NCBI GenBank assembly: GCA_947175195.1
Contig: CAMWLQ010000006.1
Coordinates: 664 to 64,663, forward strand
Origin: an uncultured Clostridia bacterium
GTDB taxonomy: Bacteria; Bacillota; Clostridia; Christensenellales; Pumilibacteraceae
Direction: 5' to 3'
Length of the DNA: 64,000 bases
In this document: in pieces, positions 7,935 through 28,192 of the stretch
Position numbering within the stretch: position 1 is the first letter of the stretch
Layout of the letters: every line of letters starts with the position of its first letter
Translations under genes and position numbers: made by a program
Notes under the pieces: generated by a model
Database searches by the model: none
The model's input: the letters and a program-made list of their open reading frames with translations, nothing else
Told to the model about the DNA's origin: nothing

Positions 7935-8058
7935 TACATAATTTTTATTTTGCTACCGTACCACTAAATGCGCACCCATACAGGTGCGTTTTTATGTGCT
8001 TGAAAACTACTCCTATTTGTGTTATAATCAAAATACATAATTGTTGGGAGCAGTATTG

Positions 8059-8805
8059 ATGATATTTGCAATAATTGCGATAATTGCAGTGCTATTAATC
8101 ATAATCTTAGTATTCGGTAGAACGATACGTTCTCCTAAGTCCAAAGGCGAACACGGGGAAAGTACTGTTGCCAAAATATTGGGTGAAACTATAGCAGGCG
8201 AACAATATGTTATTAATGATTTGTTATTTAGTAATGAGTCGGGACAATCGTGTCAAATAGACCACATTTACATAAACAAATTCGGAATATGGGTAATTGA
8301 AACAAAAAATTATTCGGGTCGTATTTACGGTGATGAAAAACAACGTGAATGGACACAGGTATTAGCCTATGGCAATGAAATAAATAAGTTCTATAATCCC
8401 GTAAAACAAAATGCAACGCATATCTATCATTTGTCAAAATACCTAAAAGTGAAAAACGTTTTTCAAAATATAGTAGTATTTTTGTCAAGGTCGGATATAT
8501 CAAGCGTAACGTCAAATAATGTATATTCTATCTATGAATTACCATTAATAAAAAGTCAGGTTACTGATACAACTTTGTCCGTTGATAAAATGGAGCGCTA
8601 TTATAATCAGCTTTTGGAGCTAAAGAATAATCCGACAATAAGCAAAGCAGAGCATATCGAAAATATCCATAGAAAGCAAGAGCAAATCAAACAAGGCATT
8701 TGCCCGAGGTGCGGTGGGAATTTGGTATTGCGTGACGGAAAGTACGGACAATTTTACGGTTGCTCCAACTTTCCTGCTTGTAAATTTAAAAAGAATATTG
8801 ATTAG
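8059..8805 (+). CDS. NERD domain protein with C-terminal topoisomerase-type C4 zinc finger
   Basis: N-terminal TM. NERD-like core is QIDHIYINKFGIWVIETKNYSGRIYGDEKQREWTQ. Zinc finger is CPRCGGNLVLRDGKYGQFYGCSNFPACKF. Confidence 0.75.
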   Translation: MIFAIIAIIAVLLIIILVFGRTIRSPKSKGEHGESTVAKILGETIAGEQYVINDLLFSNESGQSCQIDHIYINKFGIWVIETKNYSGRIYGDEKQREWTQVLAYGNEINKFYNPVKQNATHIYHLSKYLKVKNVFQNIVVFLSRSDISSVTSNNVYSIYELPLIKSQVTDTTLSVDKMERYYNQLLELKNNPTISKAEHIENIHRKQEQIKQGICPRCGGNLVLRDGKYGQFYGCSNFPACKFKKNID

Positions 8806-8924
8806 ATTTTTGCGGGAACTAACAATATAATGCGAGCAAAACGTCATAACAAATACCGCTTGTTTTTATTATGACTTTATGATATTATATAGCTATCCAT
8901 TTTATAATTACGGAGCACTGACAA

Positions 8925-9311
8925 ATGAATATCGAAACAAAAGAGGTGAACGGCAACATATCGAGCGCGGGCGAGTGGCGCAGTTTCGGCTGGCAACAAA
9001 CCGCCAGTAGAAAAGTTCGGTCGGGACGGAGCAGGCATAGAACTATATACACTTTGGCGCGCGATAAGGATATGCCCAATTACGCAGCGCTCAATCGGAT
9101 GGAGGGCGAATACTTGGATTTAAAGCGCAACAAAAAAACGTATAACCCGATGGAGGCGAGCAATGTCTTGATTGCTTTTGCGTTCTTAATCATTCCCGGG
9201 ATTATCTACGTTACCGTAAAATTAAAACAAAAGAAAAGAATAAATGAACATAACGCTGACGTTCAAAAACAAATGGACGCGGTAATAGCAAAAGCTCAAC
9301 AGTTGCTATAA
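8925..9311 (+). CDS. small single-TM hypothetical protein
   Basis: SD GGAG. TM helix VLIAFAFLIIPGIIYVTV. Confidence 0.4.
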   Translation: MNIETKEVNGNISSAGEWRSFGWQQTASRKVRSGRSRHRTIYTLARDKDMPNYAALNRMEGEYLDLKRNKKTYNPMEASNVLIAFAFLIIPGIIYVTVKLKQKKRINEHNADVQKQMDAVIAKAQQLL

Positions 9312-9785
9312 TATTAGGTTTTTATAAGCAGCAAAGTGCAATTATCTGAATGTTACATGCACAATAAGATTTTTTAATAAAAAGGTTGCAAATATTATTT
9401 TCGATAATATTTATTGGTATAAATTCGTAGTTCCCGAACAAGGTTTATCCAAAGGCGATTGGCAATGCGCATATTTAGAACAATATCTTAATTGTGAAGC
9501 AATTGTCACCCTTTATTTTGCTTTCTTTATTTACAAATATGAAAAGTAAGAGGAAGAAAGGCACTCCATATGAGATGTTTTCTCTTGAAAGCGCAAAACC
9601 AATCCCTAAATATCTTTTGGAATGCATCGAATTCGAAAGCGAAGATGATGACTAATGAAAATAACAACTCGTGATTGTTTTTTATTGTTCTGCAAAAACA
9701 CGACGTAACAGAGAATGCCTTTGTCATGTGAGCCATATTAAATATGTTTATAAAAACCCATATTTGTATTGTATATAATTATTGC

Positions 9786-9814
9786 TTGACAAATTTACGT
9801 ATAAATGTTAATAT
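9786..9814 (+). promoter_or_regulatory. promoter TTGACA-17-TAATAT
   Basis: Consensus -35, 17-nt spacer, followed by SD AAAGGAG and the ATG at 9839. Confidence 0.55.
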
Positions 9815-9838
9815 TTTTATGCGTGCAAAGGAGAAAAA

Positions 9839-10273
9839 ATGGGTAACTGGCGGAAATGGAATATAACGATATGCTCTCAGTCGTATTTTGTTTCTACAAT
9901 TGACGGGGAAGAAAAATACTTTTTTGTAGGATACGATAACGGGATAAAAGAAAAAAAAGAGGAACTGTATTTTTTGCAACGCGAAAAGGATAAAGAAAAG
10001 TACCAAATCGCATTTAGTCCGAAACCTCATTTTATAAGCTATTCGTTTTTTTACGGTTTTTTTAATGACACTATAACTAAAATGTGCAGTGAATCGGATA
10101 CTACGCATTCGTTTTTGTCACAAAAGAATATAATTCTAAATAAATTTTTCGAGAAATATGCTTTTGATGTTGACGAAATAGTTAACGCCCAAATCAAAGA
10201 GTATGTCATGGCAATAATCGAAAAAAATATTGATATTCAAGATGGGGTGGGCATTAAGAATGGAATTAATTGA
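9839..10273 (+). CDS. hypothetical protein
   Basis: Good promoter and SD. No family recognised. Confidence 0.45.
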   Translation: MGNWRKWNITICSQSYFVSTIDGEEKYFFVGYDNGIKEKKEELYFLQREKDKEKYQIAFSPKPHFISYSFFYGFFNDTITKMCSESDTTHSFLSQKNIILNKFFEKYAFDVDEIVNAQIKEYVMAIIEKNIDIQDGVGIKNGIN

Positions 10274-10718
10274 TATTATAACTCTTGCCCTATCGGCAAT
10301 AAACTCTTTAAGCGTTATCGTTATCGGAGTGCAAACCGCACGACGCGAAAAGAAAGAAAAAATAAAGTCAAAAAAGAAAATTTGGTACAAAACCGAAGTT
10401 ATTTCCAACGATAAAATCAATAAACACGTACAGGCTATTGAGCAGGTATTAAACGAGGAATCTGACAAATTAACCATGTGTCAAAAGCTAAATTCATGTA
10501 TGTTGGATTTTTTTTATTCCTCGATAAATTATATTGCATTCTTTAATATGAAGTATTGCGAACAAATTAAAAAAGAGATAATGGCGGCTATGGATAGCGT
10601 TATATGCGCAGTGGTTTACAGTGAGAATAAGATGAGCGACAGAGATAAAGAAAAAGCATTAAAAATTTATAGAATAAAAATCATGGCCCTATTTTATAAC
10701 TTAGACTTACAATTGTAA
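10260..10718 (+). CDS. hypothetical protein with N-terminal TM helix
   Basis: The internal ATG (MELIDIITLALSAINSLSVIVIG) overlaps the upstream stop by 14 nt. No family recognised. Confidence 0.4.
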   Translation: MELIDIITLALSAINSLSVIVIGVQTARREKKEKIKSKKKIWYKTEVISNDKINKHVQAIEQVLNEESDKLTMCQKLNSCMLDFFYSSINYIAFFNMKYCEQIKKEIMAAMDSVICAVVYSENKMSDRDKEKALKIYRIKIMALFYNLDLQL

Positions 10719-10743
10719 CATTTACAAAAAAGAGAGGTTCCTA

Positions 10744-11259
10744 ATGATAAAAATAATTGATTACGTAATCGACGATATCGTTAAACAGTATCAAAACGAT
10801 GTTTATAACAAAAAAATAGACGATATCTCTCAAGTCGTATATCCGTCTACCAATAAAAAAGATAAATTGGGGGAATGGGTAAGACAATACTTTGTTAAGT
10901 TAGATAGCGTTATTCAAGACGCGGTCAAACAAAGCGGGGTAAAGACCGGCGTTGTTATATTGGGATCTAAGCATACGACGTCAAGCGTGTACGTCAACCA
11001 TTTTGAACCGGGTATGTTGTACGACGTTTTGGAAAATTACGACAAAATGTTTCCTGTTCAGAAAAAATATCGGCACAATGAATGGGATTTTGAATATAAA
11101 AATGGCGCAGCCCATTTGAAATCTATTGCATTGGGAAAGGGTTCAACCGTATTTATTAAAAACGGAGATTTGGTTTTGGGTGATTTTGAGAATATTATTT
11201 ATGCGGAATTTGATTATCGTCCGTTAAAGTCATTCAACATAGTAATTATGGGTGAATAA
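10744..11259 (+). CDS. YjbQ/UPF0047 family protein (secondary thiamine-phosphate synthase-like)
   Basis: GSKHTTSSVYVNHFE ... NGAAHLKSIALGKGSTVFIKNGDLVLGDFENIIYAEFD. Confidence 0.7.
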   Translation: MIKIIDYVIDDIVKQYQNDVYNKKIDDISQVVYPSTNKKDKLGEWVRQYFVKLDSVIQDAVKQSGVKTGVVILGSKHTTSSVYVNHFEPGMLYDVLENYDKMFPVQKKYRHNEWDFEYKNGAAHLKSIALGKGSTVFIKNGDLVLGDFENIIYAEFDYRPLKSFNIVIMGE

Positions 11260-11282
11260 TATAATATATACGGAGGTTGAAT

Positions 11283-11942
11283 ATGTCGAAGCTGATCATA
11301 TTTGATTTTGATGGGACGATAGCCGACTCTATGTGGGCATGGGACGAGTTGGGTGAAGATACGATTAACGAGAATCATCTGCCACTAATAGATGATTATG
11401 AAGATGTGATAAGGACAATGAGCGTCCCCGATTTTGCCGACTATTTATCCGGAATTTATCCGCAATTGGGAAACGGCAAACAAATATTGTCGAATTGGCA
11501 TGAAAAAATGGTCTTTAAATACTGTAATCAGGTTTCTTTAAAAAGCGGGGTAAGAGAGTTTTTAGATTATTTAAAAAGCAACAACTATAAATTATATTTG
11601 GCCTCGGCAACTTGCTATGACGTATTAAATGAGGCATTAAATCATTTTGACCTTAAACAATATTTTGATTTTATTTTAACGGAAGAAATTGTGGGAATAT
11701 CAAAAAGAAACCCTCAAATTTATCAAGTATGTATAGATAGGGCTAAATCCGACATAGATAATACGATAGTATTCGAGGATGCGATTCATGCTGTCGAAAC
11801 AGTTAAAAATTTAGGTATTAAGGTGTGCGCTATTAAAGACTATTCTATGCGCAATCACGAAGAAGAAATTAAAAAAACGGCTGATTTGTATATTGAGGAT
11901 TACTGTAATTTCAATCAATTAAAAAATTTCATTTTAGGTTAG
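11283..11942 (+). CDS. HAD-superfamily hydrolase
   Basis: Motif I is IIFDFDGTIADS. SD GGAGG lies 6 nt upstream of the ATG. Confidence 0.75.
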   Translation: MSKLIIFDFDGTIADSMWAWDELGEDTINENHLPLIDDYEDVIRTMSVPDFADYLSGIYPQLGNGKQILSNWHEKMVFKYCNQVSLKSGVREFLDYLKSNNYKLYLASATCYDVLNEALNHFDLKQYFDFILTEEIVGISKRNPQIYQVCIDRAKSDIDNTIVFEDAIHAVETVKNLGIKVCAIKDYSMRNHEEEIKKTADLYIEDYCNFNQLKNFILG

Positions 11943-12140
11943 TGCTTGACGTAAAACGCGCTATTCAATATTTTGTATTGTAATATATGAACTCGTGCAA
12001 AGTGAGTTCGTATTTTGATTTAGCGGCTAAAATGGAAAATTCAAAGATTAAATTTTAATAAAAAACATTTTGACCTATTGAATTTTATATAAATATGTGA
12101 TATTATTTATATATACCTTATTGAATTATCGGAGGATAGT

Positions 12141-13364
12141 ATGTTTGATTGGGGACTTACCAAAAAGTTGTTTGACGGGTTTATGATACTGCGTTGGACG
12201 GACTTTATAAGACCTATGGAATACACGCAAATGGAAAAAAGCGCAACACAGGCGGTGCTTTCTTATTTAATAGGAAAAGAATACGAGGAGCGAACGGGCG
12301 AATCGTTAGACTGGGAATTTATTGTCAGGAGCAACATATTCGGATTATTAAGCAAGATTGCGACGTCCGACATTAAAGCGACGATTAACAATAAAATCAA
12401 AGCCGAGCATGCGGAGGCGCTCAAAGAATACATCCTCGGCATCTACTTTGACGAAAACGACGAATTCAGGTATCGTCCGAAGGACATAGTCACCAAAACC
12501 GATTTGGCAACGTTTATCGACAAGAGCGACGTCGAGGACCGTATAGAATACGAGATTTGTTATGCGGCGCATAAGTTTGCCACGTACCGAGAGTTTTGCT
12601 ATATAGAAAACCTCAACCTGTGCAGCCCCGACACCGAGATAGTAAAGAAGGAAATAAGTCCCGCGACGTTTATCAATAAAATAAAAGATAAGACTGTCAA
12701 AGAAATCATCAAAAAGCTGGACAATCCCAAAGACGAGCTGTTTTTATTTTTCAGCTACTTTGAAAAGTTAAAACCGCAAATCCGTTGGTCGCAAACATGC
12801 CGTTTGCCCCAAACGACGGTTTTGGGACATTCCATGTACGTTGCGGTGCTGACGTACTTTGCGGCAAAGGAAATGCAAATTGTGACCGACGAGTCCACCG
12901 TTGTGGTAAACAGCTTTTTTGCCGCACTGTTCCATGACCTGCCCGAAAGCTTGACGCGCGATATTATTTCGCCCGTCAAGAGGAGCATAAGGCAATTCGA
13001 AAGCAAGCTTGCCGAGTACGAGTATCAACAGGTACGCGAAATGATGGAGAGCAGAATACAAGACCGCACGTGGAAAGACCACTTCATGCTGCTTTTGGGC
13101 GAGGACGACAAAAAGTTTTTGCCGTTTGACGACCGCCCCGGCGTTTTGGGCGAGCTTGTGGAAACAATGGACAAAATTGCCGCCTTTATCGAGGCAAAAA
13201 TGTCTATCGAGCTGGGCGTCAGTTCGGACGGCTTGAAAAACGGCGTCAGTTCGGGCGCGAATTTTATAATGGGCAAGGTGTTCGATTTTAGGTACAACCG
13301 CGATTGGCGAAAGAGCAAAAAGCCGCTTTACTTGAACGACTTTTTGGCGTCCATACCGCATTAG
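12141..13364 (+). CDS. HD-domain phosphohydrolase family protein
   Basis: LGHSMYVAVL ... ALFHDLPESLTRDIISP (H...HD...D). Confidence 0.7.
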   Translation: MFDWGLTKKLFDGFMILRWTDFIRPMEYTQMEKSATQAVLSYLIGKEYEERTGESLDWEFIVRSNIFGLLSKIATSDIKATINNKIKAEHAEALKEYILGIYFDENDEFRYRPKDIVTKTDLATFIDKSDVEDRIEYEICYAAHKFATYREFCYIENLNLCSPDTEIVKKEISPATFINKIKDKTVKEIIKKLDNPKDELFLFFSYFEKLKPQIRWSQTCRLPQTTVLGHSMYVAVLTYFAAKEMQIVTDESTVVVNSFFAALFHDLPESLTRDIISPVKRSIRQFESKLAEYEYQQVREMMESRIQDRTWKDHFMLLLGEDDKKFLPFDDRPGVLGELVETMDKIAAFIEAKMSIELGVSSDGLKNGVSSGANFIMGKVFDFRYNRDWRKSKKPLYLNDFLASIPH

Positions 13365-18939: not shown

Positions 18940-21900
18940 ATGGTGCAAAGCGAGCTTTACAAAAAGGTATTGGAATATGCGTTCGGCATGTGCCGCAAGG
19001 ACGGCAAGGCGTCGGTCAACGCCGACTATTTTGTCACGGCGCTGCTCAATATGGTATTGGCGCATAGCCGCGACGAGCTGGACGGCATACCCGAAATATA
19101 TATTTACAACAAGTCGGCGGTCAACAAGGAGTTGGCTGAGGCACGGCGCATATTCGAGCGCTACAACATAAACGTCATGGACGTTGCCGTGCGCATGGAA
19201 AGCGCGGTGCGCCATTCCGCAAACGACGCGGACGCGGGCATAGCCTTTCAAAAAACGGAGCGTGCGGCGCTTGTCAAGCTAAACGAGCAGGGCAGGAACG
19301 AGCTTACCACGTCCGTCATGCTGGAGATATTGCTCGGCGAGCCGACCGAATACATAAAGCAGTTCATAACCTCGGCAGGCATGGTCAAGCAGCCCGACGC
19401 GCCGTTGCCGTACGACAATGACGGCGCTGCGGAAGAGGCTGCCGCAGAGGCGCCCACGCCTGTCCAAGACGAGTATCCCGATATAACGAATAGTGACGAG
19501 AGTATCGACGATTTGATTGCGGACGCTATGGACAAGATAGCTCGGACGTTAGAAGACGACAGGGAATCGCCGCGGCAGGACAGCGACGAAAAACACGGCG
19601 TTACACCGCATAGGCGTTATACCGAAACCGAGCGTTACGGCGGGTACGACGCTCAGCCGCACGAACAGGCGAGCCAAAACCCTACTATTATCGACTATGC
19701 CGAAAGGGTTAAGGCCGTTCAGGACAAGCTGCTTGAGCGTGTGTTCGGGCAGGATTTGGCTGTGGAAATGTTCGTGTCGGGGTACTTTCAAGCCGAGCTT
19801 GTTTCCATGCTGATGAAGGGGCGCAAAAAGCCGCGCGCAACATTTTTGTTTGCCGGTCCGCCGGGGGTGGGCAAAACCTACCTTGCCGAATGTGCGGCGG
19901 AGGCGTTGGGACTTCCGTTCAAGCGGTTTGACATGAGCGAGTACTCCAATAACGAATCGGGACTGAACTTTGCGGGCACGGACAAGGTGTACAAGGGAGC
20001 GCACGAGGGCGCGGTTACGGGCTTTGTCGAGCAAAATCGGCGGTGCGTGCTGCTGTTTGACGAGGTGGAAAAAGCGCATCTAAACGTAATCAATTTGTTC
20101 CTGCAAATACTGGACGCGGGACGGCTGCGTGACACCTTTACCGAGCACGAGGTAGATTTTTCGGACGCCATAATCATACTTACCACCAACGCGGGCAAAA
20201 CGCTGTACGACGATCCCGACATAATCAATCTTTCGAGCGTGCCCAAAAAGACGGTTATTCGCGCGCTGTCCGCCGAACAGCGTTCGGACGGCACGCCGTC
20301 CTTTCCCGAGGCAATATGCTCACGGTTTGCCTCGGGCAACGTCGTTATGTTCAACAAGCTTGGCGCACACGAGCTGCTGCGCATTGCTGGCAACGAGGTC
20401 GCCGTCCACGCCGAGGCGCTCAACAACAAAACGGGCGTCAAGATAGAGCTTGACGAAAATATCAATTACGCAATACTGTACTCGGAGGGCGGCAACGCCG
20501 ACGCCCGCGCCATACGCGGCAGGGCGGTCAGCTTTTTCTACGGCGAGCTGTACGAGTTTTTACGCTTGGCGTCGTCGGACAAGCCCGCGCGCGATTTCGA
20601 TACTATCAAGCTGGATATAGAACAGCCCAATGATGAAAAAATAGCCGAGCTGTTTTCGCCCGCGCAAACCCCAGAAGTGTTAATGTTTACCGACGGTGAA
20701 CGCCAAAATCAGTGCCGCGCCGCGCTAAAAGGCGTAACGGCGCACTACACTTGCGACATAACGACGGCAAAAAACATATTGGCGGAAAACGATATTTCGA
20801 TTATCGTTTGCGATATTAAGTGCGGTCGGCGCAGCGGCAGGCAGTCGGTGCTCAATCTCGAGGACATCGACTCGGAAGGTCGCGACTTCTTCAACTACGC
20901 AAGCCAAAACGTGGCTACGCCTTTGTATGTGCTGGGCGACGGCTACGACATAAAAAGCGAGGAGCTTTTGTCCTTTTCGCGCAACGGCGCAATGGGCGTG
21001 ATAAGCCTGGGCGGCGACGACGTAAAAGACTTTACGGCGCAGGTGCTGGAAAAATGCAATATTGCCAAGCAGCAGCGCAACATGCTCGAGCTTGCGCGGT
21101 CGCAAAAGATTTTGTCGTACCAAACCGCGCAAAGCTTTGACGGCGACGGCACGGCAAGGATAACGCTGTTTGATCTTAAGCTGTCCGTGGCGGTGGACGC
21201 AGGCGACGGCGAAAGCGTGCTCAGCGGAATGTCCCGTCCCGACATCAAGTTCGACGACGTAATCGGCGCGGACGACGCAAAGCGCGAGCTGGGCTACTTT
21301 ACCGCGTATCTCAAAAATCCCAAAATATTCGCAAAAAACGGCGTGCGCCCGCCCAAGGGCATACTGTTGTACGGTCCGCCGGGGACGGGCAAGACCATGC
21401 TAGCCAAGGCGCTTGCGGGCGAGTCGGAGGTGACGTATATCGCCGCCGAGGGCAACAGCTTTTTAAGCAAGTGGGTAGGCGAGGGTCCCAAGCGCGTTCA
21501 CGAGCTGTTCGCAACGGCGCGCAAGTACGCGCCCGCGGTGCTGTTTATAGACGAGATAGACGCTATCGGCATTTCGCGCGCCGACCTAAGCGCCGACCGC
21601 GACACGACAAGTGAAATACTTACCGCACTACTCACCGAAATGGACGGATTTAAGGCTCACCCCGACAGACCTGTGTTTGTGCTTGCCGCAACCAACGTCG
21701 GCGTGGACGACGGCGGTAAAAAGCAGCTCGACCCCGCGCTGCTGCGCAGGTTTGACAGGCGTATAATGGTCGACCTGCCCAACAAGTCCGAGCGCGAAAA
21801 GTTTATGCGCATGCAGTGCGAGCGCAACGCCAACATCCGTCTTTCGGACGAGCAGCTGAAAAACATAGCCGTGCGCTCGACGGGTATGAGCCTTGCCGAC

Positions 21901-22569
21901 CTCGCGTCGGTTGTGGAAATGGCACTGCGCAGTGCGCTCAAAAATCCCGACTTTGACGTCACCGACGACATAATAGAAGAGGCGTTTGAGGAATATAACA
22001 GCGGCGAGGTCAAAAAGTGGGACGACGGCACGCTACTGCGCACGGCGCGGCACGAGTGCGGTCACGCGTTGCTGTACTGGCTGAGCGGAAAAACGCCGTC
22101 CTATCTTACCATTGTCGCGCGCGACAACCACGGCGGATATATGCAGTACGGCGACGAGGAGAGCAAGCCGCTGTATACTAAAGCCGAAATTTTGGCGCAC
22201 GTGCGCACAGCGCTCGGCGGCATGGCGGCGGAGCTTGTGTACTACGGCGATGACGACGGGCTGTCCACCGGGCCGAGCGGCGATTTGCAAAACGCGACAA
22301 GGCGAGTGGAAAATCTTATTTGCGCATACGGCATGGACGAAAAGATAGGCTTGGGCGCAATAGACGGCGCGGCGCTTATGCATTCGCCGTACTACGCGAC
22401 GGTGCATGCGCGCGTCAGCGAAATACTGGGCGAGCAGCTGGATGCGGCAAAGCAGGCAATAGAGCAAAACAAGCCCGCCGTTGACGAGCTTGTGCGCGTG
22501 CTTTTGGAAAACAACAAGCTAAAAGGCGAGCAAATCGACGGGATTTTGAGCGGGCTTGCCAAACGCTGA
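18940..22569 (+). CDS. soluble dual AAA+ protein: Clp-N-like + ClpB-D2-like AAA+ + linker + FtsH-like AAA+ and M41 metalloprotease
   Basis: The first module has FLFAGPPGVGKTYLAECAAEALGLPFKRFDMSEY and VLLFDEVEKAH...FLQILDAGRLRD. The second module has ILLYGPPGTGKTMLAKALAGE and VLFIDEIDAIG. The protease part has HECGHAL (HExxH) and GDLQNATRRVENLICAYGM. No TM segment seen. Confidence 0.8.
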   Translation: MVQSELYKKVLEYAFGMCRKDGKASVNADYFVTALLNMVLAHSRDELDGIPEIYIYNKSAVNKELAEARRIFERYNINVMDVAVRMESAVRHSANDADAGIAFQKTERAALVKLNEQGRNELTTSVMLEILLGEPTEYIKQFITSAGMVKQPDAPLPYDNDGAAEEAAAEAPTPVQDEYPDITNSDESIDDLIADAMDKIARTLEDDRESPRQDSDEKHGVTPHRRYTETERYGGYDAQPHEQASQNPTIIDYAERVKAVQDKLLERVFGQDLAVEMFVSGYFQAELVSMLMKGRKKPRATFLFAGPPGVGKTYLAECAAEALGLPFKRFDMSEYSNNESGLNFAGTDKVYKGAHEGAVTGFVEQNRRCVLLFDEVEKAHLNVINLFLQILDAGRLRDTFTEHEVDFSDAIIILTTNAGKTLYDDPDIINLSSVPKKTVIRALSAEQRSDGTPSFPEAICSRFASGNVVMFNKLGAHELLRIAGNEVAVHAEALNNKTGVKIELDENINYAILYSEGGNADARAIRGRAVSFFYGELYEFLRLASSDKPARDFDTIKLDIEQPNDEKIAELFSPAQTPEVLMFTDGERQNQCRAALKGVTAHYTCDITTAKNILAENDISIIVCDIKCGRRSGRQSVLNLEDIDSEGRDFFNYASQNVATPLYVLGDGYDIKSEELLSFSRNGAMGVISLGGDDVKDFTAQVLEKCNIAKQQRNMLELARSQKILSYQTAQSFDGDGTARITLFDLKLSVAVDAGDGESVLSGMSRPDIKFDDVIGADDAKRELGYFTAYLKNPKIFAKNGVRPPKGILLYGPPGTGKTMLAKALAGESEVTYIAAEGNSFLSKWVGEGPKRVHELFATARKYAPAVLFIDEIDAIGISRADLSADRDTTSEILTALLTEMDGFKAHPDRPVFVLAATNVGVDDGGKKQLDPALLRRFDRRIMVDLPNKSEREKFMRMQCERNANIRLSDEQLKNIAVRSTGMSLADLASVVEMALRSALKNPDFDVTDDIIEEAFEEYNSGEVKKWDDGTLLRTARHECGHALLYWLSGKTPSYLTIVARDNHGGYMQYGDEESKPLYTKAEILAHVRTALGGMAAELVYYGDDDGLSTGPSGDLQNATRRVENLICAYGMDEKIGLGAIDGAALMHSPYYATVHARVSEILGEQLDAAKQAIEQNKPAVDELVRVLLENNKLKGEQIDGILSGLAKR

Positions 22570-22598
22570 AAAAGTTGAAAAAAAATCATATTTTCCTA

Positions 22599-22627
22599 TT
22601 GACAACATAAATGTATTATGTTATAAT
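22599..22627 (+). promoter_or_regulatory. promoter TTGACA-17-TATAAT
   Basis: Perfect consensus hexamers upstream of the CDS at 22678. Confidence 0.6.
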
Positions 22628-22677
22628 CATCAGGTCGGTTAAAAAAGACCGTAAAAATCATTCTAAAGGAGCACAAT

Positions 22678-23073
22678 ATGAACGCCATTACATGGGAAGA
22701 CGTTGTAAAACACCTTGAGTCTACGTACAAAACCGACAGAGCGGGTGACATGGTAAAAATCGTGTTCGTGTATCCCGACGATCAAAACAGGACGCAGCTT
22801 GTGCTTGTCGATCACGAGCAACAGTCCAATAGACTACTTGTGGAAGTGGTATCGCGCGTAGGCGACATTGCCACAAGCCGTCTGCCCAAAGCCCTTGAGG
22901 CAATCGGCAAAAAGTATTTTGTCGCATTGGAAAAGATGGGCGACATATATTACGTAAGAGTTACGCTTGATATGAACTATGTTCCGATGTCAGCTATAGG
23001 CAATCTTGTGGAGCTTGTCGGCCGCACGGCGGATACCTTGGAAAAGGATTTTTGCGGCGGCGACGAAAACTAA
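22678..23073 (+). CDS. hypothetical 131-aa protein (YbjN/chaperone-like fold suspected, weak)
   Basis: SD AAAGGAG, own promoter and own terminator. Confidence 0.5.
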   Translation: MNAITWEDVVKHLESTYKTDRAGDMVKIVFVYPDDQNRTQLVLVDHEQQSNRLLVEVVSRVGDIATSRLPKALEAIGKKYFVALEKMGDIYYVRVTLDMNYVPMSAIGNLVELVGRTADTLEKDFCGGDEN

Positions 23074-23099
23074 CAGCCTGTATCATTACAAAGAACAAG

Positions 23100-23133
23100 T
23101 GCATGGGTGTAACTGCGCCCATGCATTTTTTTG
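23100..23133 (+). terminator. intrinsic terminator
   Basis: TGCATGGG / CCCATGCA stem followed by T7. Confidence 0.7.
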
Positions 23134-23172
23134 TTGTCAACTATCTAAATCCATAAAAGGAGTTAATACCCT

Positions 23173-23526
23173 ATGAAAAAAATAGAATACCGCGCAATCA
23201 ACTGGAAAGCCACGGGGCGCAACCTGCAAAATTTGAGGTTGAATAATTACAATTTGCGCAAGTACGTGTGCTGGCAGCTGAAAAGCGGCGACAGTAATTG
23301 TATAGGCGATTGCGAAAAATGCAAGCTGGATATGGACAATCATATCAGCCAGGGCGAGCTCGCGCGCGTTTTCTATTTGGACAACGAGAGCAGGATAGTG
23401 AACTGGGAAAAGGGTAGAGCACGCCCTACGATAAGCGACCTATTGTACTATGCGGAAATATGCCGTATTCCGCTCGAGCAGGTGCTTATATTCGAAAATA
23501 GCGCAACCAACAATAAAGACCAATAA
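23173..23526 (+). CDS. XRE-type HTH regulator interrupted by a C-x9-C-x3-C-x2-C insertion
   Basis: TGRNLQNLRLNN ... CWQLKSGDSNCIGDCEKC ... ISQGELARVFYLDNESRIVNWEKGRARPTISDLLYYAEICRIPLEQV. Confidence 0.6.
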   Translation: MKKIEYRAINWKATGRNLQNLRLNNYNLRKYVCWQLKSGDSNCIGDCEKCKLDMDNHISQGELARVFYLDNESRIVNWEKGRARPTISDLLYYAEICRIPLEQVLIFENSATNNKDQ

Positions 23527-23710
23527 TATAATCGACCGATGTCATGTAAATTTTCGGTCGACTCGATTCGAGGAACATTTTTGCTTGCTTGCAATGGCAA
23601 AAATGCGACGACGACAAATTTGGTGAATACCAAATTTATAGACCGAAAATAAGCCGTGATACGTCACGGCGGCACTATGCCGGTTTATGCGCTTTTGCGC
23701 GCAGTCAATC

Positions 23711-23746
23711 GAGAACTTGTAAAATTTACAGGTTCTCTTTTGTTTT
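23711..23746 (+). terminator. intrinsic terminator 185 nt downstream of the regulator stop
   Basis: GAGAACTTGT / ACAGGTTCTC 10-bp stem (one G-U) followed by TTTTGTTTT. Confidence 0.65.
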
Positions 23747-23781
23747 CGCAAGTTTGCTGTAATAGCTGCGCGCAAACTGCG

Positions 23782-23810
23782 TTGAAGAGGTGCTTGACTT
23801 TTGCTACAAT
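23782..23810 (+). promoter_or_regulatory. promoter TTGAAG-17-TACAAT driving the structured leader and clpP-like operon
   Basis: Hexamers at 23782-23787 and 23805-23810. No other promoter-like sequence lies before the ATG at 24230. Confidence 0.55.
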
Positions 23811-23817
23811 ATCTATG

Positions 23818-24111
23818 GAGGGGAGGAAGCCATAGTGGACCCGAGCTCCGCAAGCCCAAACGCCGCATTATTGGCTATTTTGCCCCTTACGTCGCTTGAC
23901 GTACCGCAATGGGTACGACTGCGCTCCGTAAGTGTCAAACTATCTCAAAACTTCGGCGTTTGGGTGCGAGCAGTTTTTGGGAGCATAATGCGCCGTCAGA
24001 CAAGGAAAAGCGCACGAAGCTGTACTCTCTGTAGTACCGCGAGTGTGCTTTGACGCAGTATCACGGCGCAGGATGCCCCAAAAACCTTACGGGTTCGAGT
24101 CCACTATGGCT
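23818..24111 (+). ncRNA. unclassified structured RNA / long 5' leader (~290 nt)
   Basis: Perfect long-range helices: 23828-23840/24099-24111 (13 bp), 23855-23865/23954-23964 (11 bp), 23973-23981/24077-24085 (9 bp) and 23989-23996/24063-24070 (8 bp). Also 24008-24015/24043-24050 (8 bp with one G-U), local hairpins, and a possible pseudoknot 23866-23871/23985-23990. Confidence 0.5.
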
Positions 24112-24229
24112 ATGCAAAAAGCCGAAGAGATAAGCAAAGAGTTAAGCAAAAGGCAGGTCGACAACGGCTACAAACGTTTCAACAGCTCAAACACTTTTAA
24201 CGCGGAAAACCGCAAAGGAGAAAAGAACT

Positions 24230-24790
24230 ATGAATGAAAGAGAAAAGTTTTCTTGGGAGTACTCGCTCAACCGCAATACCGTCAATATCTTCGGTGTTGT
24301 GGACACTCCGATGGCTGAGCTGGTCATAGGTCAGCTCCAGTACTTGGACGACAAGTTCAAAAGCGAGGACGTTCCGCCGTCCGAACGCATTATCACGTTG
24401 CAAATCAACAGCCCCGGCGGGAGTGTCAGCGACGGACTTGCCATCTACGACACAATGAACTACATAGACGCCAAGATCCGCACGGTCGGGCTGGGTATGT
24501 GCGCAAGCATGGGCGCGTTTTTGCTGTCGTCGGGCACAAAGGGGATGCGCGCGGCTACCAAAAATTGCGAAATACTCATTCACCAGCCCATCGGCGGCGC
24601 AAGCGGTCAGGCGAGCGACATCATAATCGCCGCCAACCACATCGAGCGCATGCGGGCTCGGCTCAATAACATTCTTGCCGCCAACACCGGCAACACCGTC
24701 AAACGGATCAGAAAGGACACCGACCGCGACACCATTCTCACGGCGGACGAGGCAAAGGCGTACGGACTGATCGACATTGTTATAAAGTAG
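24230..24790 (+). CDS. clpP: ClpP-family (S14) serine protease paralogue with non-canonical short N-terminus
   Basis: INSPGGSVSDGLAIYDTM, CASMGAFLL (Ser), ILIHQPIGGASGQASDI (His), TDRDTILTADEAKAYGLID (Asp). SD AAAGGAG. Confidence 0.8.
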   Translation: MNEREKFSWEYSLNRNTVNIFGVVDTPMAELVIGQLQYLDDKFKSEDVPPSERIITLQINSPGGSVSDGLAIYDTMNYIDAKIRTVGLGMCASMGAFLLSSGTKGMRAATKNCEILIHQPIGGASGQASDIIIAANHIERMRARLNNILAANTGNTVKRIRKDTDRDTILTADEAKAYGLIDIVIK

Positions 24791-24869
24791 GGGTTAAACC
24801 CGAAGGAACGAAACGCATGATTTAAAGCGGCGGCAACGCTTAACTGTATTAATAAAGGAGGAATATATC

Positions 24870-26477
24870 ATGCTTACCAATCAAAACGAACTGTTTTTAT
24901 CGGAATACTTTTTTAGCCGCAGCGTGCTTGGCAAGCTGGTCAAGCACCCCAAGCATATGTTTGACACGCTGGGCGAAATATTCCTTATTCCCAAATGCGA
25001 CGTCGACGGACTGTACGCGCTTGCCGAGGACAAGCTGGTCGCCGACGTAAACAATTACGCCGACTACCTACAGTTTTGCCGTATCGAAAAGTACGTTGCG
25101 CTCGTGGACGGCGACGGCGGCGTCCCCGCCGAAATCGCGGACGTAATAGCGGTAAAGGGCGAGGCGCTGGCGCGGGCATACGACCTTAAGCTTGACGGAA
25201 CGCGCCTCACCGAATCGGCGGTTTTCCGTATGCTTACGGAGGGCGCGGCGCACGGCACGGTTGCGGCAATGCGCATACTCGGTTTTATTCAGTGCGAGGG
25301 CATTTATACCGATCGCGACCTCGCCGCGGGCGTCAAAAATTTGGAGCGTGCGGCGCAGTGGAACAGTGTGGAGGGCACGCTTGCCGCGCTGTACTACAAT
25401 GCGGAACGCCAAGCCGACGTCAACCGCCTGCGCACAGTCGCGGACGGCACGGTGTACCGCGCATTCCCCGCGCTTGCCGAGGCAAAGTACGGCATTGCCG
25501 CGGACGGCGAGGTAAAGGAGAGTAAGCTGCTTAACAAGGCGTTCGCGCTCGGCAAGCTCACGCCCGATATTTATTCGGCGCAGTACGCGCGCATCATATA
25601 CAGCGCGGTGCTTGCTCCGCGCGACAAGGAGCGCACAATGTTCTCGCCCAACGACCAAGCCATATCGGAGGTTGCCGAACTGCCGCTCAAGCTTAGCGGC
25701 GGCGCGCTTGCACCCGACTGTGCGGCATTCGACGGCATGCCGCTTGTGCGGCAAAAAGAGGAGGAGCGCATACGGCTTTGCCTGACCAACAGCGACCTGC
25801 TCGAGCGTTCGGCGTTCCGTCCGCTGTGCGTGTGCGCCGATTCGGAATACATGCGCAAGCTGTACGCGCGGCATATCCGCAAGGCGTTCTCCGCGGCGCA
25901 TGTGGAATACATAGACGTGGCGGGACTGGACGAGCACGACCTGCAGCCGACGGGCAAAAACATATTTGTGCGCAGCTGTGACGAGGACGCGTTCAACGTG
26001 TATCTTATGTCGTTTGTCGGCAATATCGCGGGCGGCGTAATGCAGGAGGCAATAGGATTCCTGCAAAGCCGTCGGCGCAAAAAGTTTTGCCTGCTCAGTC
26101 CGGGCGTGGTTATCGACCTTGGCAAGGTGCTGCCCGTATGCTTTTGCGACAAGGCAAACGCGAAGGAGCTTAAAAAGTACTGCGACGTTGTTACGGTCGG
26201 CGCGGTTTCCGCAGCCGAAAAGCCTGCGGCATACGACGATATGGTCAAGTCCAAACAGCGGCTGTACGGCGCAAAGTCCGTCACCCTGTCGGACGACGCC
26301 GTCGCGCGACTCAACGAGCTTTCGGTGGACGGCGCGGAAAACGTTATCGACTCGGTTATAAGGTTTAACCGCAACAAGGCGGAAACGGTAATCACGCCCG
26401 CGCTCATCGACGAGTGCGCCACTGCGCGCACCGAAAAGAATAGATACGGATTCGGAGGTGACGGCGATGAAATATAG
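24870..26477 (+). CDS. Sel1-like repeat protein with C-terminal AAA+-like half lacking a P-loop
   Basis: SD AAGGAGG. Sel1-like segment AAHGTVAAMRILGFIQCEGIYTDRDLAAGVKNLERAAQ. No GxxxxGK[ST] anywhere. Lid-like end VTLSDDAVARLNELSVDGAENVIDSVIRF. Confidence 0.55.
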   Translation: MLTNQNELFLSEYFFSRSVLGKLVKHPKHMFDTLGEIFLIPKCDVDGLYALAEDKLVADVNNYADYLQFCRIEKYVALVDGDGGVPAEIADVIAVKGEALARAYDLKLDGTRLTESAVFRMLTEGAAHGTVAAMRILGFIQCEGIYTDRDLAAGVKNLERAAQWNSVEGTLAALYYNAERQADVNRLRTVADGTVYRAFPALAEAKYGIAADGEVKESKLLNKAFALGKLTPDIYSAQYARIIYSAVLAPRDKERTMFSPNDQAISEVAELPLKLSGGALAPDCAAFDGMPLVRQKEEERIRLCLTNSDLLERSAFRPLCVCADSEYMRKLYARHIRKAFSAAHVEYIDVAGLDEHDLQPTGKNIFVRSCDEDAFNVYLMSFVGNIAGGVMQEAIGFLQSRRRKKFCLLSPGVVIDLGKVLPVCFCDKANAKELKKYCDVVTVGAVSAAEKPAAYDDMVKSKQRLYGAKSVTLSDDAVARLNELSVDGAENVIDSVIRFNRNKAETVITPALIDECATARTEKNRYGFGGDGDEI

Positions 26478-28146
26478 CAATAAACTGTTAAAGGGTTACG
26501 AGGATATGCGGCTAATCGGTTACGAGGACGCCGCACTCCCCAACACCGTTGCATACGACGAGTTACAGGACAATTACCTTGCCGGCGTGCTTAAAATGAA
26601 CAGGCACAAGGACGGCAAGCTCATTCAAACATACAGCGCTGCGGAAAGCCATGTGGGCGTGATTGCGGCGACGCGCTTGGGCAAAACTACAAGCTACGTC
26701 ATACCCACTATTGTGTCGTTTGCGCAGCAAAAGGTAAAGCGCAGCATGATAATATCCGACCCCAAGGGCGAGCTGTATAAAAGTACGTCGGAGTCGCTGC
26801 GCAACCAGGGCTACGACGTAAAGCTGCTCAACTTTCGCGACTACTTGCACAGCGAGTGCTGGAACATGCTCACGCCCATATACCGCAAGTACCAAAAGGC
26901 GATAGCCATTGCCGACGAGGCGGAGGTCGTAATCGACGGCGAGGAGCTTAAGCACAAGTTTTACGGACGGCTGTACACCGACTTTGCCGAGCTGCAACGC
27001 CAAATAGAGTACTACACCGATATGATGATGGACGAGGTGGGCAACGACATAGACATGCTTTGCTCAATGTTCATCACCACGGAAAAGCTGCAAGATCCGT
27101 ACTGGGAGGACAGCGCGCGCGAGCTGCTCAAGGCGTTTTTGTGGGCGATGCTGGAGGACAGCGGCAAGGAGGCTCACGCCACGCGAATCACCGAGGAAAC
27201 GTTCTCGTTCAGCACCATACTCACCATACTCGCGCAGTTCAAGGACGACAACGGCTCGCAATACAACGACAGCGGATATTTCTCCGCGCGCAAACCTACG
27301 TCGCGCGCATTGCAGCTTGCCAAGAACAACCTTTTGGAGAATGCAAGCAACACCCGCAAATGTATTGTCGCCACGTTCAACACCAAAATGGCTGTGTTCA
27401 GGGAGTGCGCCATGCGGCTGATTACCCGTTGCAACTCGTTTAATTTGGAAACAATTTGCGACAAGCCGACGGCGGTGTTTATAGACTACCGCGACGAGGT
27501 AAAGGTGCATTACCAAGTAATAAGCCTGTTCGTGCAAAACGCGTATAGGTTTTTGATAGATAAAGCCAATGCGTCGGGCAAAGGCAGGCTGGACGTGCCC
27601 TTCTACTTTATACTGGACGAGTTCGGCAACTTCCCCGCAATGCGCGACTTTGAAACGACCATATCGGCATGCGCTGGTCGCAACATATTCTTCATACTCA
27701 TATTCCAGTCGTATGCGCAACTCAACAAGGTGTACGGCGCGGACGTTGCGGAAATCATACGCGACAACCTGAACATGCACGTGTTTTTCGGCTCGAATAA
27801 CCCCGCAACGCTGCGCGCGTTTTCGGAGGAGTGCGGGGAGTACGCAAGGATTTCGCCGCTGTCCGCGCTCAACGGCAAAAGCGACGATATGGAAATGTAC
27901 AGCATAGAAACCATTCCGCTCGTCACCAAAAGTCGGCTTTCGCACTTCGCGCCGGGCGAGTGCATAATAACCGAGGCTAATTCGGGCTACGTAATGTTTT
28001 CCAAGCTGGAACGGTATTACGAATGTGCCGAGTTTTCCGATTTGCCTACTGCGGCGGAAACGGACTATATTTGCGACGTAAATCCGTTCGATAGAAAATA
28101 CGTTTACGAGGTAAAATTCAAGCGCAAGAGTATGTACGATTTTTAG
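26467..28146 (+). CDS. VirD4/TraG-like (type IV coupling protein family) ATPase without TM anchor
   Basis: GVIAATRLGKTTSYVIPT (Walker A), PFYFILDEFGNFP (Walker B), IFFILIFQSYAQLNKVYG. Overlaps the upstream stop by 11 nt. SD GGAGGTG. Confidence 0.75.
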   Translation: MKYSNKLLKGYEDMRLIGYEDAALPNTVAYDELQDNYLAGVLKMNRHKDGKLIQTYSAAESHVGVIAATRLGKTTSYVIPTIVSFAQQKVKRSMIISDPKGELYKSTSESLRNQGYDVKLLNFRDYLHSECWNMLTPIYRKYQKAIAIADEAEVVIDGEELKHKFYGRLYTDFAELQRQIEYYTDMMMDEVGNDIDMLCSMFITTEKLQDPYWEDSARELLKAFLWAMLEDSGKEAHATRITEETFSFSTILTILAQFKDDNGSQYNDSGYFSARKPTSRALQLAKNNLLENASNTRKCIVATFNTKMAVFRECAMRLITRCNSFNLETICDKPTAVFIDYRDEVKVHYQVISLFVQNAYRFLIDKANASGKGRLDVPFYFILDEFGNFPAMRDFETTISACAGRNIFFILIFQSYAQLNKVYGADVAEIIRDNLNMHVFFGSNNPATLRAFSEECGEYARISPLSALNGKSDDMEMYSIETIPLVTKSRLSHFAPGECIITEANSGYVMFSKLERYYECAEFSDLPTAAETDYICDVNPFDRKYVYEVKFKRKSMYDF

Positions 28147-28192
28147 CTAATATTTGACCAAAGCAAAGATTGCAAAGGGATTTATAAGGGGC

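Follow-up and report, generated by a model that had tools for sequence, protein, structure and literature searches.

What is the long, strongly folded segment that lies immediately ahead of a clpP gene at positions 23818-24111 of a 64-kb stretch of contig CAMWLQ010000006.1 (hereafter the window), from an uncultured Clostridia bacterium? An initial annotation had described this segment as a promoter-driven RNA of about 290 nt, belonging to no recognisable class and serving most simply as a 5' leader of clpP. Our analysis leads to a different answer, namely that the segment is part of an inserted element (23827..24125, plus strand, bounds ±10 nt) which is probably a full-length copy of an unclassified, non-coding and palindromic family of intergenic repeats resembling miniature inverted-repeat transposable elements (MITEs). 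The best-supported reading of the family as a whole is that it was previously unclassified and constitutes a new structured repeat family in uncultured gut Clostridia. Insertion polymorphism, dispersal, decay by deletion, compensatory conservation of structure and a constant orientation are each demonstrated, at the level of sequence comparison, in the paragraphs that follow.

The fold drawn by hand in the initial annotation proved accurate. A direct check of coordinates returned a perfect 13-bp helix (23828-23840 with 24099-24111), a perfect 11-bp helix (23855-23865 with 23954-23964), helices of 9 bp (23973-23981 with 24077-24085) and 8 bp (23989-23996 with 24063-24070), and a second 8-bp helix that includes one G-U pair (24008-24015 with 24043-24050), as well as the hairpins at 23900-23917 and 24022-24037. 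The computed thermodynamic fold has the same architecture. As RNA, the plus strand reaches a minimum free energy of -143.1 kcal/mol, versus -96.5 ± 5.5 kcal/mol for shuffled sequences (z = -8.5); the minus strand gives z = -8.2, and the plus strand folded as DNA again gives z = -8.5.

In this architecture the 13-bp helix is followed by a 1x1 loop and 7 further pairs, which together form a closing helix of about 21 bp leading to a three-way junction with two large domains. The same helix is the terminal inverted repeat of the element (13 bp perfect, 18/21 across the extended arms), and it is retained as an inverted repeat in all copies. Its left, imperfect arm (23828..23848, plus strand) consists of AGCCATAGTGGAC, a C and CGAGCTC, and its right arm (24092..24111, plus strand) of GGGTTCG, an A and GTCCACTATGGCT, the latter arm including a T-loop look-alike, GGTTCGAGTCC; the end sequences of the element are thus TAGCCATAG on the left and CTATGGCTA on the right. 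Domain A (23849..23968, plus strand) is a long hairpin composed of a 12-bp helix (23854-23865 with 23954-23965), a CCTTACG/CGTAAG helix and the apex at 23900-23917, while Domain B (23973..24085, plus strand) is a long hairpin of irregular pairing, whose internal loops (AGAC.AGGAAA versus TTGACG.AGTAT.ACG) are conserved and whose apex is at 24022-24037. The motif CCTTACG does occur twice, as had been noticed, forming a direct repeat on the plus strand (copy 1 at 23885..23891, copy 2 at 24085..24091), and CGTAAG is found at 23927; the helix that copy 1 makes with CGTAAG is kept across the aligned copies. Beyond the inverted repeat there is a 3' tail, TATGCAAAAAGCC (24112..24125, plus strand), which resembles the tail GACTGCAAAAATATTATAAGG of a copy located on a mobile element (see below). 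At about 299 bp the element is non-coding: its copies differ by frame-breaking insertions and deletions, and its sole long open reading frame (ORF; 87 aa) begins upstream of the presumed transcription start. One part of the hand-drawn fold fell away on comparison. The pseudoknot proposed between 23866-23871 and 23985-23990 is complementary in the window copy but finds no support in the others, since one homologue (L068) has GATTAC facing GGAAAG and two (L066 and L067) are without the partner segment.

The insertion itself becomes apparent when the clpP leader is compared with that of related genomes. A promoter scan confirmed the predicted promoter as TTGAAG-N17-TACAAT at 23782..23810 on the plus strand, with a TG ahead of the -10 box (TTGAAG-N17-(TGc)TACAAT), and clpP transcription would accordingly begin near 23817, at GGAGGGGAGG. 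This promoter is preceded by the intrinsic terminator of the upstream operon (23711..23737, plus strand; a 12-bp stem and then a T run), and from the element to the clpP ATG at 24230 the scan found no terminator on the plus strand, again in agreement with the earlier description. The clpP ribosome-binding site (AAAGGAG, 24214-24220) and coding sequence (24230-24790), both on the plus strand, are native and lie downstream of the element and outside it. We compared six loci (L002-L005, L007 and L025) whose homologue of a 535-aa protein encoded in the clpP operon is 68-85% identical to that of the window. In all of them nucleotide homology ends at window position 23821-23829 and restarts at 24181-24210, with about 25-40 nt between. 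These loci lack the structured segment but retain the promoter, the start region GGAGGGGAGG, a small hairpin (GCGG-AAAA-CCGC) and the ribosome-binding site. The hairpin (24199-24213 in the window, just 5' of the ribosome-binding site) occurs in all close relatives, element or not, and for this reason belongs to the native clpP leader.

Six further loci (L060-L065) have a gap of about 310-330 nt between the upstream gene and clpP, versus 704 nt in the window, and a covariance-model scan of these six gave no element match. Altogether the element is missing from the orthologous site upstream of clpP in all of the approximately 12 close relatives examined, and in the other loci among the 54 genomes in which the operon was recovered. 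Because relatives share the promoter and the ribosome-binding site and are without 23827-24125, this segment is, by comparison of sequences, a lineage-specific insertion of about 300 bp into a pre-existing clpP leader of about 110 nt.

These data bear directly on whether the segment is a clpP-specific cis-regulatory leader, riboswitch-like or thermosensing. Its position between promoter and clpP without a terminator, in a neighbourhood rich in protein-quality-control genes, would fit such a role, and the part of the initial annotation that placed it within the transcribed leader, running from a good promoter to clpP, holds as an expectation from the promoter. The riboswitch-like or operon-specific role does not, as we observe one of the refuting outcomes that the initial annotation had itself named, a lack of conservation at homologous loci. 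No relative examined has the segment ahead of its clpP, not even those with the same promoter, ribosome-binding site and operon of clpP, the 535-aa protein gene and a VirD4-like gene, the homologues of the segment are placed in unrelated intergenic contexts beside unrelated genes, the ribosome-binding site lies about 100 nt beyond the element and is unpaired with it in the fold, and Rfam offers no match. The clpP-specific reading is contradicted by these comparative data and we consider it very improbable. A tempting false lead is thereby removed, as this very stable, promoter-proximal and unclassified fold before clpP is neither a new riboswitch nor a clpP regulator.

With regard to known RNA classes, the statement that none could be recognised was upheld by a search of the whole window with Rfam 15, which gave no match at the gathering threshold. 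Relaxing the limit to E = 10 over 23500-24400 produced nothing overlapping the element, and a search of four homologue-bearing loci at E up to 1 gave no match. A mir-22 match at 23719-23804 (21 bits, E = 0.03), which covers the upstream terminator together with the clpP promoter, was set aside as chance. The G-rich start region GGAGGGGAGG, which immediately precedes the element, and the presence near the 3' end of GGTTCGAGTCC (24092-24102), which is identical to a canonical T-arm sequence, raised the idea of a tRNA-like or tmRNA-like RNA. However, GGTTCGAGTCC is one strand of the long closing helix and forms no local hairpin, copies differ at the positions that should be invariant in a T-loop (GGTCCGAG, GGTGCGAG), and the element has neither an acceptor stem nor a CCA end. 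ARAGORN found no tRNA or tmRNA gene in the window, and this reading, to which we attach next to no probability, was rejected.

Where else does the element occur? Including the window we located it at eight independent sites, the other seven also being intergenic and in uncultured gut Clostridia. The site types comprise positions after a stop codon and before a terminator, after a terminator, beside a promoter, and upstream of a rolling-circle Rep gene. Copies in four loci (L066-L069) were found by searching protein collections with the translation of the spurious 87-aa ORF, the matches being gene-caller artefacts, whereas the full-length copy of L032 and the short copy of L006 came from a profile search of the fetched loci. 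Two contigs (L032 and L068) have two copies each. In L032 a full-length copy (11962-12279) lies 4.3 kb downstream of the 535-aa gene, and a mini copy recognised by the Domain B covariance model (12650-12716) is placed between a DUF378 gene and its terminator, such that the two copies flank the DUF378 gene; no empty site for either was present among the fetched loci. In L068 a full-length copy (10481-10766) directly follows the stop codon of a collagen-like gene and precedes a terminator, and a second copy (19082-19285) stands after a terminator, its ends conserved and its interior swapped for another palindromic repeat. L066 and L067 represent one locus in two samples, between divergent genes, with Domain B reduced to a stub in one and gone in the other. 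The remaining copies are a short form of about 90 nt in L006 (9310-9395), between the stop codon of the VirD4-like gene and its terminator, and the copy upstream of the Rep gene (about 4040-4415 in L069).

The L068 contig gave two further observations. The gene called there at 10001-10672, for a 223-aa arginine-rich product, is in the wrong frame; the true gene, at 10020-10484, encodes collagen-like (Gly-X-Y)n, and its stop codon overlaps the first bases of the element. An unrelated palindromic repeat (TGTCATTCT...GAAGAATC) is also present at 10905-10950 and 19150-19235, one copy of it being nested in the second copy of the element, and host genomes thus bear more than one family of small palindromic repeats.

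The short copies show how the element decays. The L006 form equals window 23824-23891 fused at CCTTACG to 24085-24115, so that copies 1 and 2 of the direct repeat supply the left and right end points of the lost interval, and the position of the junction therefore indicates a deletion between the two repeats. As this form retains the 5' strand of the 12-bp Domain A helix when the partner strand is gone, it is derived and not ancestral. Deletion between short direct repeats accounts for the size difference between L066 and L067 as well (CAAA), and also for the mini copy of L032 and a remnant in L005. The site between the VirD4-like stop codon and terminator is found in four states: empty (L002 and L003), with 11 nt (window), with a 25-nt remnant containing GCCATAGTGGC (L005), and with the copy of about 90 nt (L006). 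The 11 nt in the window are GGATTTATAAG (28178..28188, plus strand), at the same site as the L006 and L005 copies, and may represent either a footprint or an unoccupied target site. Orthologous empty sites thus exist for two of the eight sites.

Is the structure itself conserved as these copies diverge? An alignment of the window, L068, L032 and L066 copies, whose pairwise identities are 55-88% overall, gave a consensus fold of 89 pairs in which 90.8% of cells hold standard pairs. Both sides have changed in 24 of the 89 pairs, and none of 500 shuffles reached any of the observed measures; when partners were slid by 1-3 columns, just 0-5 both-side-changed pairs remained. At one position of the closing helix the copies variously have G-C, U-A and C-G. 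Each of the three helical regions shows strong covariation, and because the helices covary we conclude from the alignment that the structure is under selection, as that of a dispersed repeat and not as that of a regulator of clpP. Among the window, L068 and L032 copies, conservation extends to the internal loops of Domain B, and a pyrimidine-pyrimidine mismatch near the apex of this domain is conserved also; these unpaired blocks and the mismatch hint at a specific partner.

Such conservation would also be expected of a functional structured RNA module that was copied to several transcription units, where selection acts on the RNA and mobility is incidental; candidates include a protein-binding element, an RNase-processing element, or a stable processed small RNA. 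The covariation in the three helical regions and the conserved loops of Domain B fit this proposal, as do the likely transcribed positions of the eight sites (5' UTRs, or 3' UTRs before a terminator), all co-oriented with genes, and a slight advantage in folding of the plus over the minus strand, seen in 3/3 copies tested. Nonetheless Domain A, Domain B or both are dispensable in natural variants (L066, L067, L006, the mini copy of L032 and the second copy of L068), and most related genomes are without any copy. Juxtapositions of G-U versus A-C number 18 versus 11, which is not decisive and favours neither strand clearly. We therefore rate a functional RNA module as unlikely.

Orientation might have separated RNA from DNA readings. 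At all eight sites the element is co-oriented with the adjacent genes, and every chromosomal copy shows positive GC skew on the element strand, that is, the lagging-strand template. Since both hold for the same copies, orientation with respect to transcription and orientation with respect to replication are inseparable, which further weakens the argument for an RNA module. What these data establish is that the folded single-stranded form in one orientation matters, and they fit RNA or DNA alike. The remark in the initial annotation that such nearly mismatch-free helices could reflect a DNA-level element pointed in the right direction.

One copy bears on single-stranded DNA, that of the L069-type element, a mobile element of about 5.5 kb on at least 49 contigs, mostly from mouse gut. 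Its products include a large serine recombinase that is TnpX-like, a 352-aa Rep of the HUH type and several small helix-turn-helix proteins. A match to PF23343 (REP_ORF2-G2P) was obtained for this Rep, which resembles the replication initiators of microviruses. The structured region is preceded by a terminator and followed by the Rep gene, with which it is co-oriented, and shares with the window element a Domain A apex that is 40/43 identical, a Domain B-like hairpin and a common 3' tail. Contigs of this type (L069-L072, L182-L190) regularly break about 65-80 nt past the Rep gene, where their flanks diverge, which suggests that the breaks mark the boundary of the L069-type element; in two scaffolds (L070 and L071) runs of N fall precisely at the Domain B hairpin.

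The element could be a single-stranded-DNA module derived from a rolling-circle mobile element, either a single-strand origin (sso) or a hairpin substrate of an HUH Rep, the chromosomal solo copies being orphans or Rep-mobilised satellites that fold on the lagging-strand template. Its helices are nearly all Watson-Crick, its z-score as DNA is as given above, and all chromosomal copies are on the positive-GC-skew strand. The two apical hairpins are alike, with GTAC-type stems, and may be likened to the paired end hairpins of IS200/IS605 elements, which resemble each other. The homologous region directly upstream of Rep is moreover where an sso or a Rep recognition region would be expected, sso being orientation-specific, structure-dependent and of similar size (PMC4595007). 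On the other hand, the operon that holds the window copy is an ordinary chromosomal one, with neither a Rep nor a relaxase in its vicinity, and the nearest Rep relative found (38.7% identity) has no comparable structure upstream, for which reason the element was rejected as an obligate partner of this Rep family. No conserved loop sequence could serve as a nick site, the loops varying as the stems covary, and no conserved 4-5-nt target adjoins the left end. The element is also internal to the L069-type element and differs in sequence from the ends of the latter, and so could occupy there simply another insertion site; L069-type contigs are near-identical, and a native origin and an extra insertion site look alike in them. 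Considering both sides, we regard a single-stranded-DNA module of this kind as rather unlikely. The more specific proposal, that the element is the cognate single-stranded-DNA module of a mobile element with HUH Rep and serine recombinase whose solo copies are mobilised in trans via the lagging-strand template, also seems unlikely to us, but if true, the Rep-mobilised satellites of gut Clostridia would be non-autonomous, hairpin-guided elements of a new kind, whose folded form is found also in mRNA UTRs. Mobilisation by nearby TnpX-like serine recombinases was considered separately (those of L068 and L069 are 47% identical) and rejected, the element being internal to the L069-type element with unlike ends and no link being found between the recombinases and the ends of the element.

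Returning to a MITE-like repeat, we can propose the following sequence of events for the window. A copy inserted in this lineage between the presumed clpP transcription start and the ribosome-binding site, so that the clpP promoter would now transcribe the element and the 5' UTR would have grown from about 110 to about 410 nt. The element presumably spreads, or spread, as DNA by means of an enzyme supplied in trans, and the folded plus-strand form would be what selection or the spreading mechanism sees. Any effect on clpP would be structural, in that a long double-stranded RNA might alter mRNA processing or stability, by analogy with Correia, ERIC and REP elements; the element would sense no ligand. 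A clpP mRNA with a mostly double-stranded leader of about 300 nt could by the same analogy be a substrate for double-strand-specific RNases. RNase III acts in the effects that Correia and ERIC elements have on mRNA.

Several points weigh against a MITE-like repeat and should be considered together. The L006 and L032 copies have TA on either side, which is suggestive, but the flanks are AA/TA in the window and TA/TG in L066, and no target-site duplication was established; TA is itself palindromic and possibly part of the inverted repeat, and the empty L002, L003 and L005 sites have TA there. Neither the window nor the fetched loci yielded an autonomous partner whose ends match. The 64-kb window has a single full copy, and 51/54 related genome loci are without a copy within 13 kb, the family apparently being patchy and of low copy number. 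Domain B is about 70% identical between the window and L032 though the neighbouring 535-aa protein is only 36% identical, and this conservation, along with the constant orientation, suggests a function beyond parasitism. Finally, we infer transcription of the element from the promoter consensus only.

Broader searches added no copies. BLASTN of the element against plasmid and phage collections gave no match, a metagenome exact-pattern scan with the Domain B block gave 4 matches, all attributable to chance, and three pattern scans of viral contigs gave 0, 0 and 108 matches, the 108 being chance as well with no true copy among them. In about 0.8 Mb of related loci, covariance models built on Domain B (R1) and on the core short form (R2) added no copy to those described above.

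By gene content the window is ordinary chromosome, with no gene for a transposase, HUH enzyme, reverse transcriptase, relaxase or VirB4. The gene cluster that includes clpP (18940-28146) begins with the gene for a 1209-aa fusion protein, in which a ClpA/B-like AAA_2 domain is joined to an FtsH-like AAA domain and an M41 peptidase, followed by genes for two small proteins, clpP, the 535-aa protein, which belongs to no family that we could assign, and a VirD4-like coupling-protein ATPase (NF045973, 247 bits versus a cut-off of 250). Other annotated genes of the window include YetF, DnaJ-Sel1, HtpG, phospholipid-synthesis genes and Mfd. The 535-aa protein has more than 100 homologues, and we recovered its operon from 54 genomes of uncultured, Christensenellales-type Clostridia. 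The VirD4-like gene was entertained as a sign of a conjugative element and rejected, given that it belongs to this conserved chromosomal operon, with no relaxase or VirB4 nearby; for the presence of a coupling-protein homologue amid protein-quality-control genes we have no explanation. Elsewhere in the window, positions 8001-12000 have a GC content of 0.33-0.35 versus about 0.50 in the remainder and encode a protein with a NERD domain and a Top1 zinc ribbon as well as several ORFs without a family match; this low-GC stretch may be an island.

These findings are of wider use, as the family offers clear covariation together with natural deletion variants. Elements of this type confound searches for non-coding RNAs and cause assembly breaks, and they can alter the 5' and 3' UTRs of core genes, here putatively by extending the clpP leader with about 300 nt of double-stranded RNA. 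The Rep-adjacent copy and the strict orientation further provide an entry to the question of whether some MITE-like repeats of Firmicutes are single-strand-DNA elements.

How, then, does the element compare with systems already described? In being small (MITEs measure less than about 500 bp) and non-coding, with terminal inverted repeats, dispersed copies and presence/absence polymorphism, it resembles a MITE. REP and IS200/IS605-type elements act as single-stranded DNA on the lagging-strand template. Like REPIN/REP (RAYT) sequences and IS200/IS605-derived palindromes, the element is a hairpin-forming extragenic repeat with compensatory change, often situated between stop codon and terminator. 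Those sequences, however, are hairpins of 20-110 nt with a conserved tetranucleotide tag or target and no inverted repeats spanning the element, whereas here the left flanks (AGGA, AAGT, AAGT, GTTT, GACT) show no conserved tag or target and the element is bounded by terminal inverted repeats. We saw no gene for RAYT or TnpA. The sso of rolling-circle plasmids, phages and ICEBs1 are orientation-specific, structure-dependent non-coding regions (PMC4595007), and the likeness extends to a non-coding length of 150-300 nt, several stem-loops, the primacy of structure over sequence and, in one homologue, a place beside, and co-oriented with, a Rep gene that a small mobile element carries. Most copies, that of the window included, differ in residing in ordinary chromosomal intergenic regions, off any replicon.

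With the Correia (CREE/nemis) and ERIC elements, the family shares terminal inverted repeats that form a long RNA hairpin, length variants, TA at both termini (in several copies) and insertion near promoters or in UTRs, and the former are documented to affect mRNA processing and stability (PMC3184786). Correia and ERIC elements are nevertheless simple hairpins of 100-160 bp present in tens to hundreds of copies in Proteobacteria, in contrast to the three-way junction, two large internal domains, asymmetric conserved 5' region and uniform orientation found here. Closer still is bcr1 of the Bacillus cereus group, a mobile, transcribed repeat of about 155 bp whose cruciform of two stem-loops is maintained by compensatory change, as described by Okstad, Klevan, Kristoffersen and co-workers (review: PMC3184786). 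The two have in common that they are non-coding, are dispersed in Firmicutes, occupy transcribed regions and have a distribution that is not conserved among relatives, and both are cruciform-like, with two independent stem-loops that undergo compensatory changes, and have copies that lose structure over time. The present element is about twice as long (about 290-320 bp), its copies are not flanked by the 5-bp direct repeats of bcr1, its hosts are uncultured Christensenellales-type Clostridia and its copy number is apparently low. The description of bcr1 thus sets the element apart as an analogue and not a member of that family, and bcr1 is its closest described analogue.

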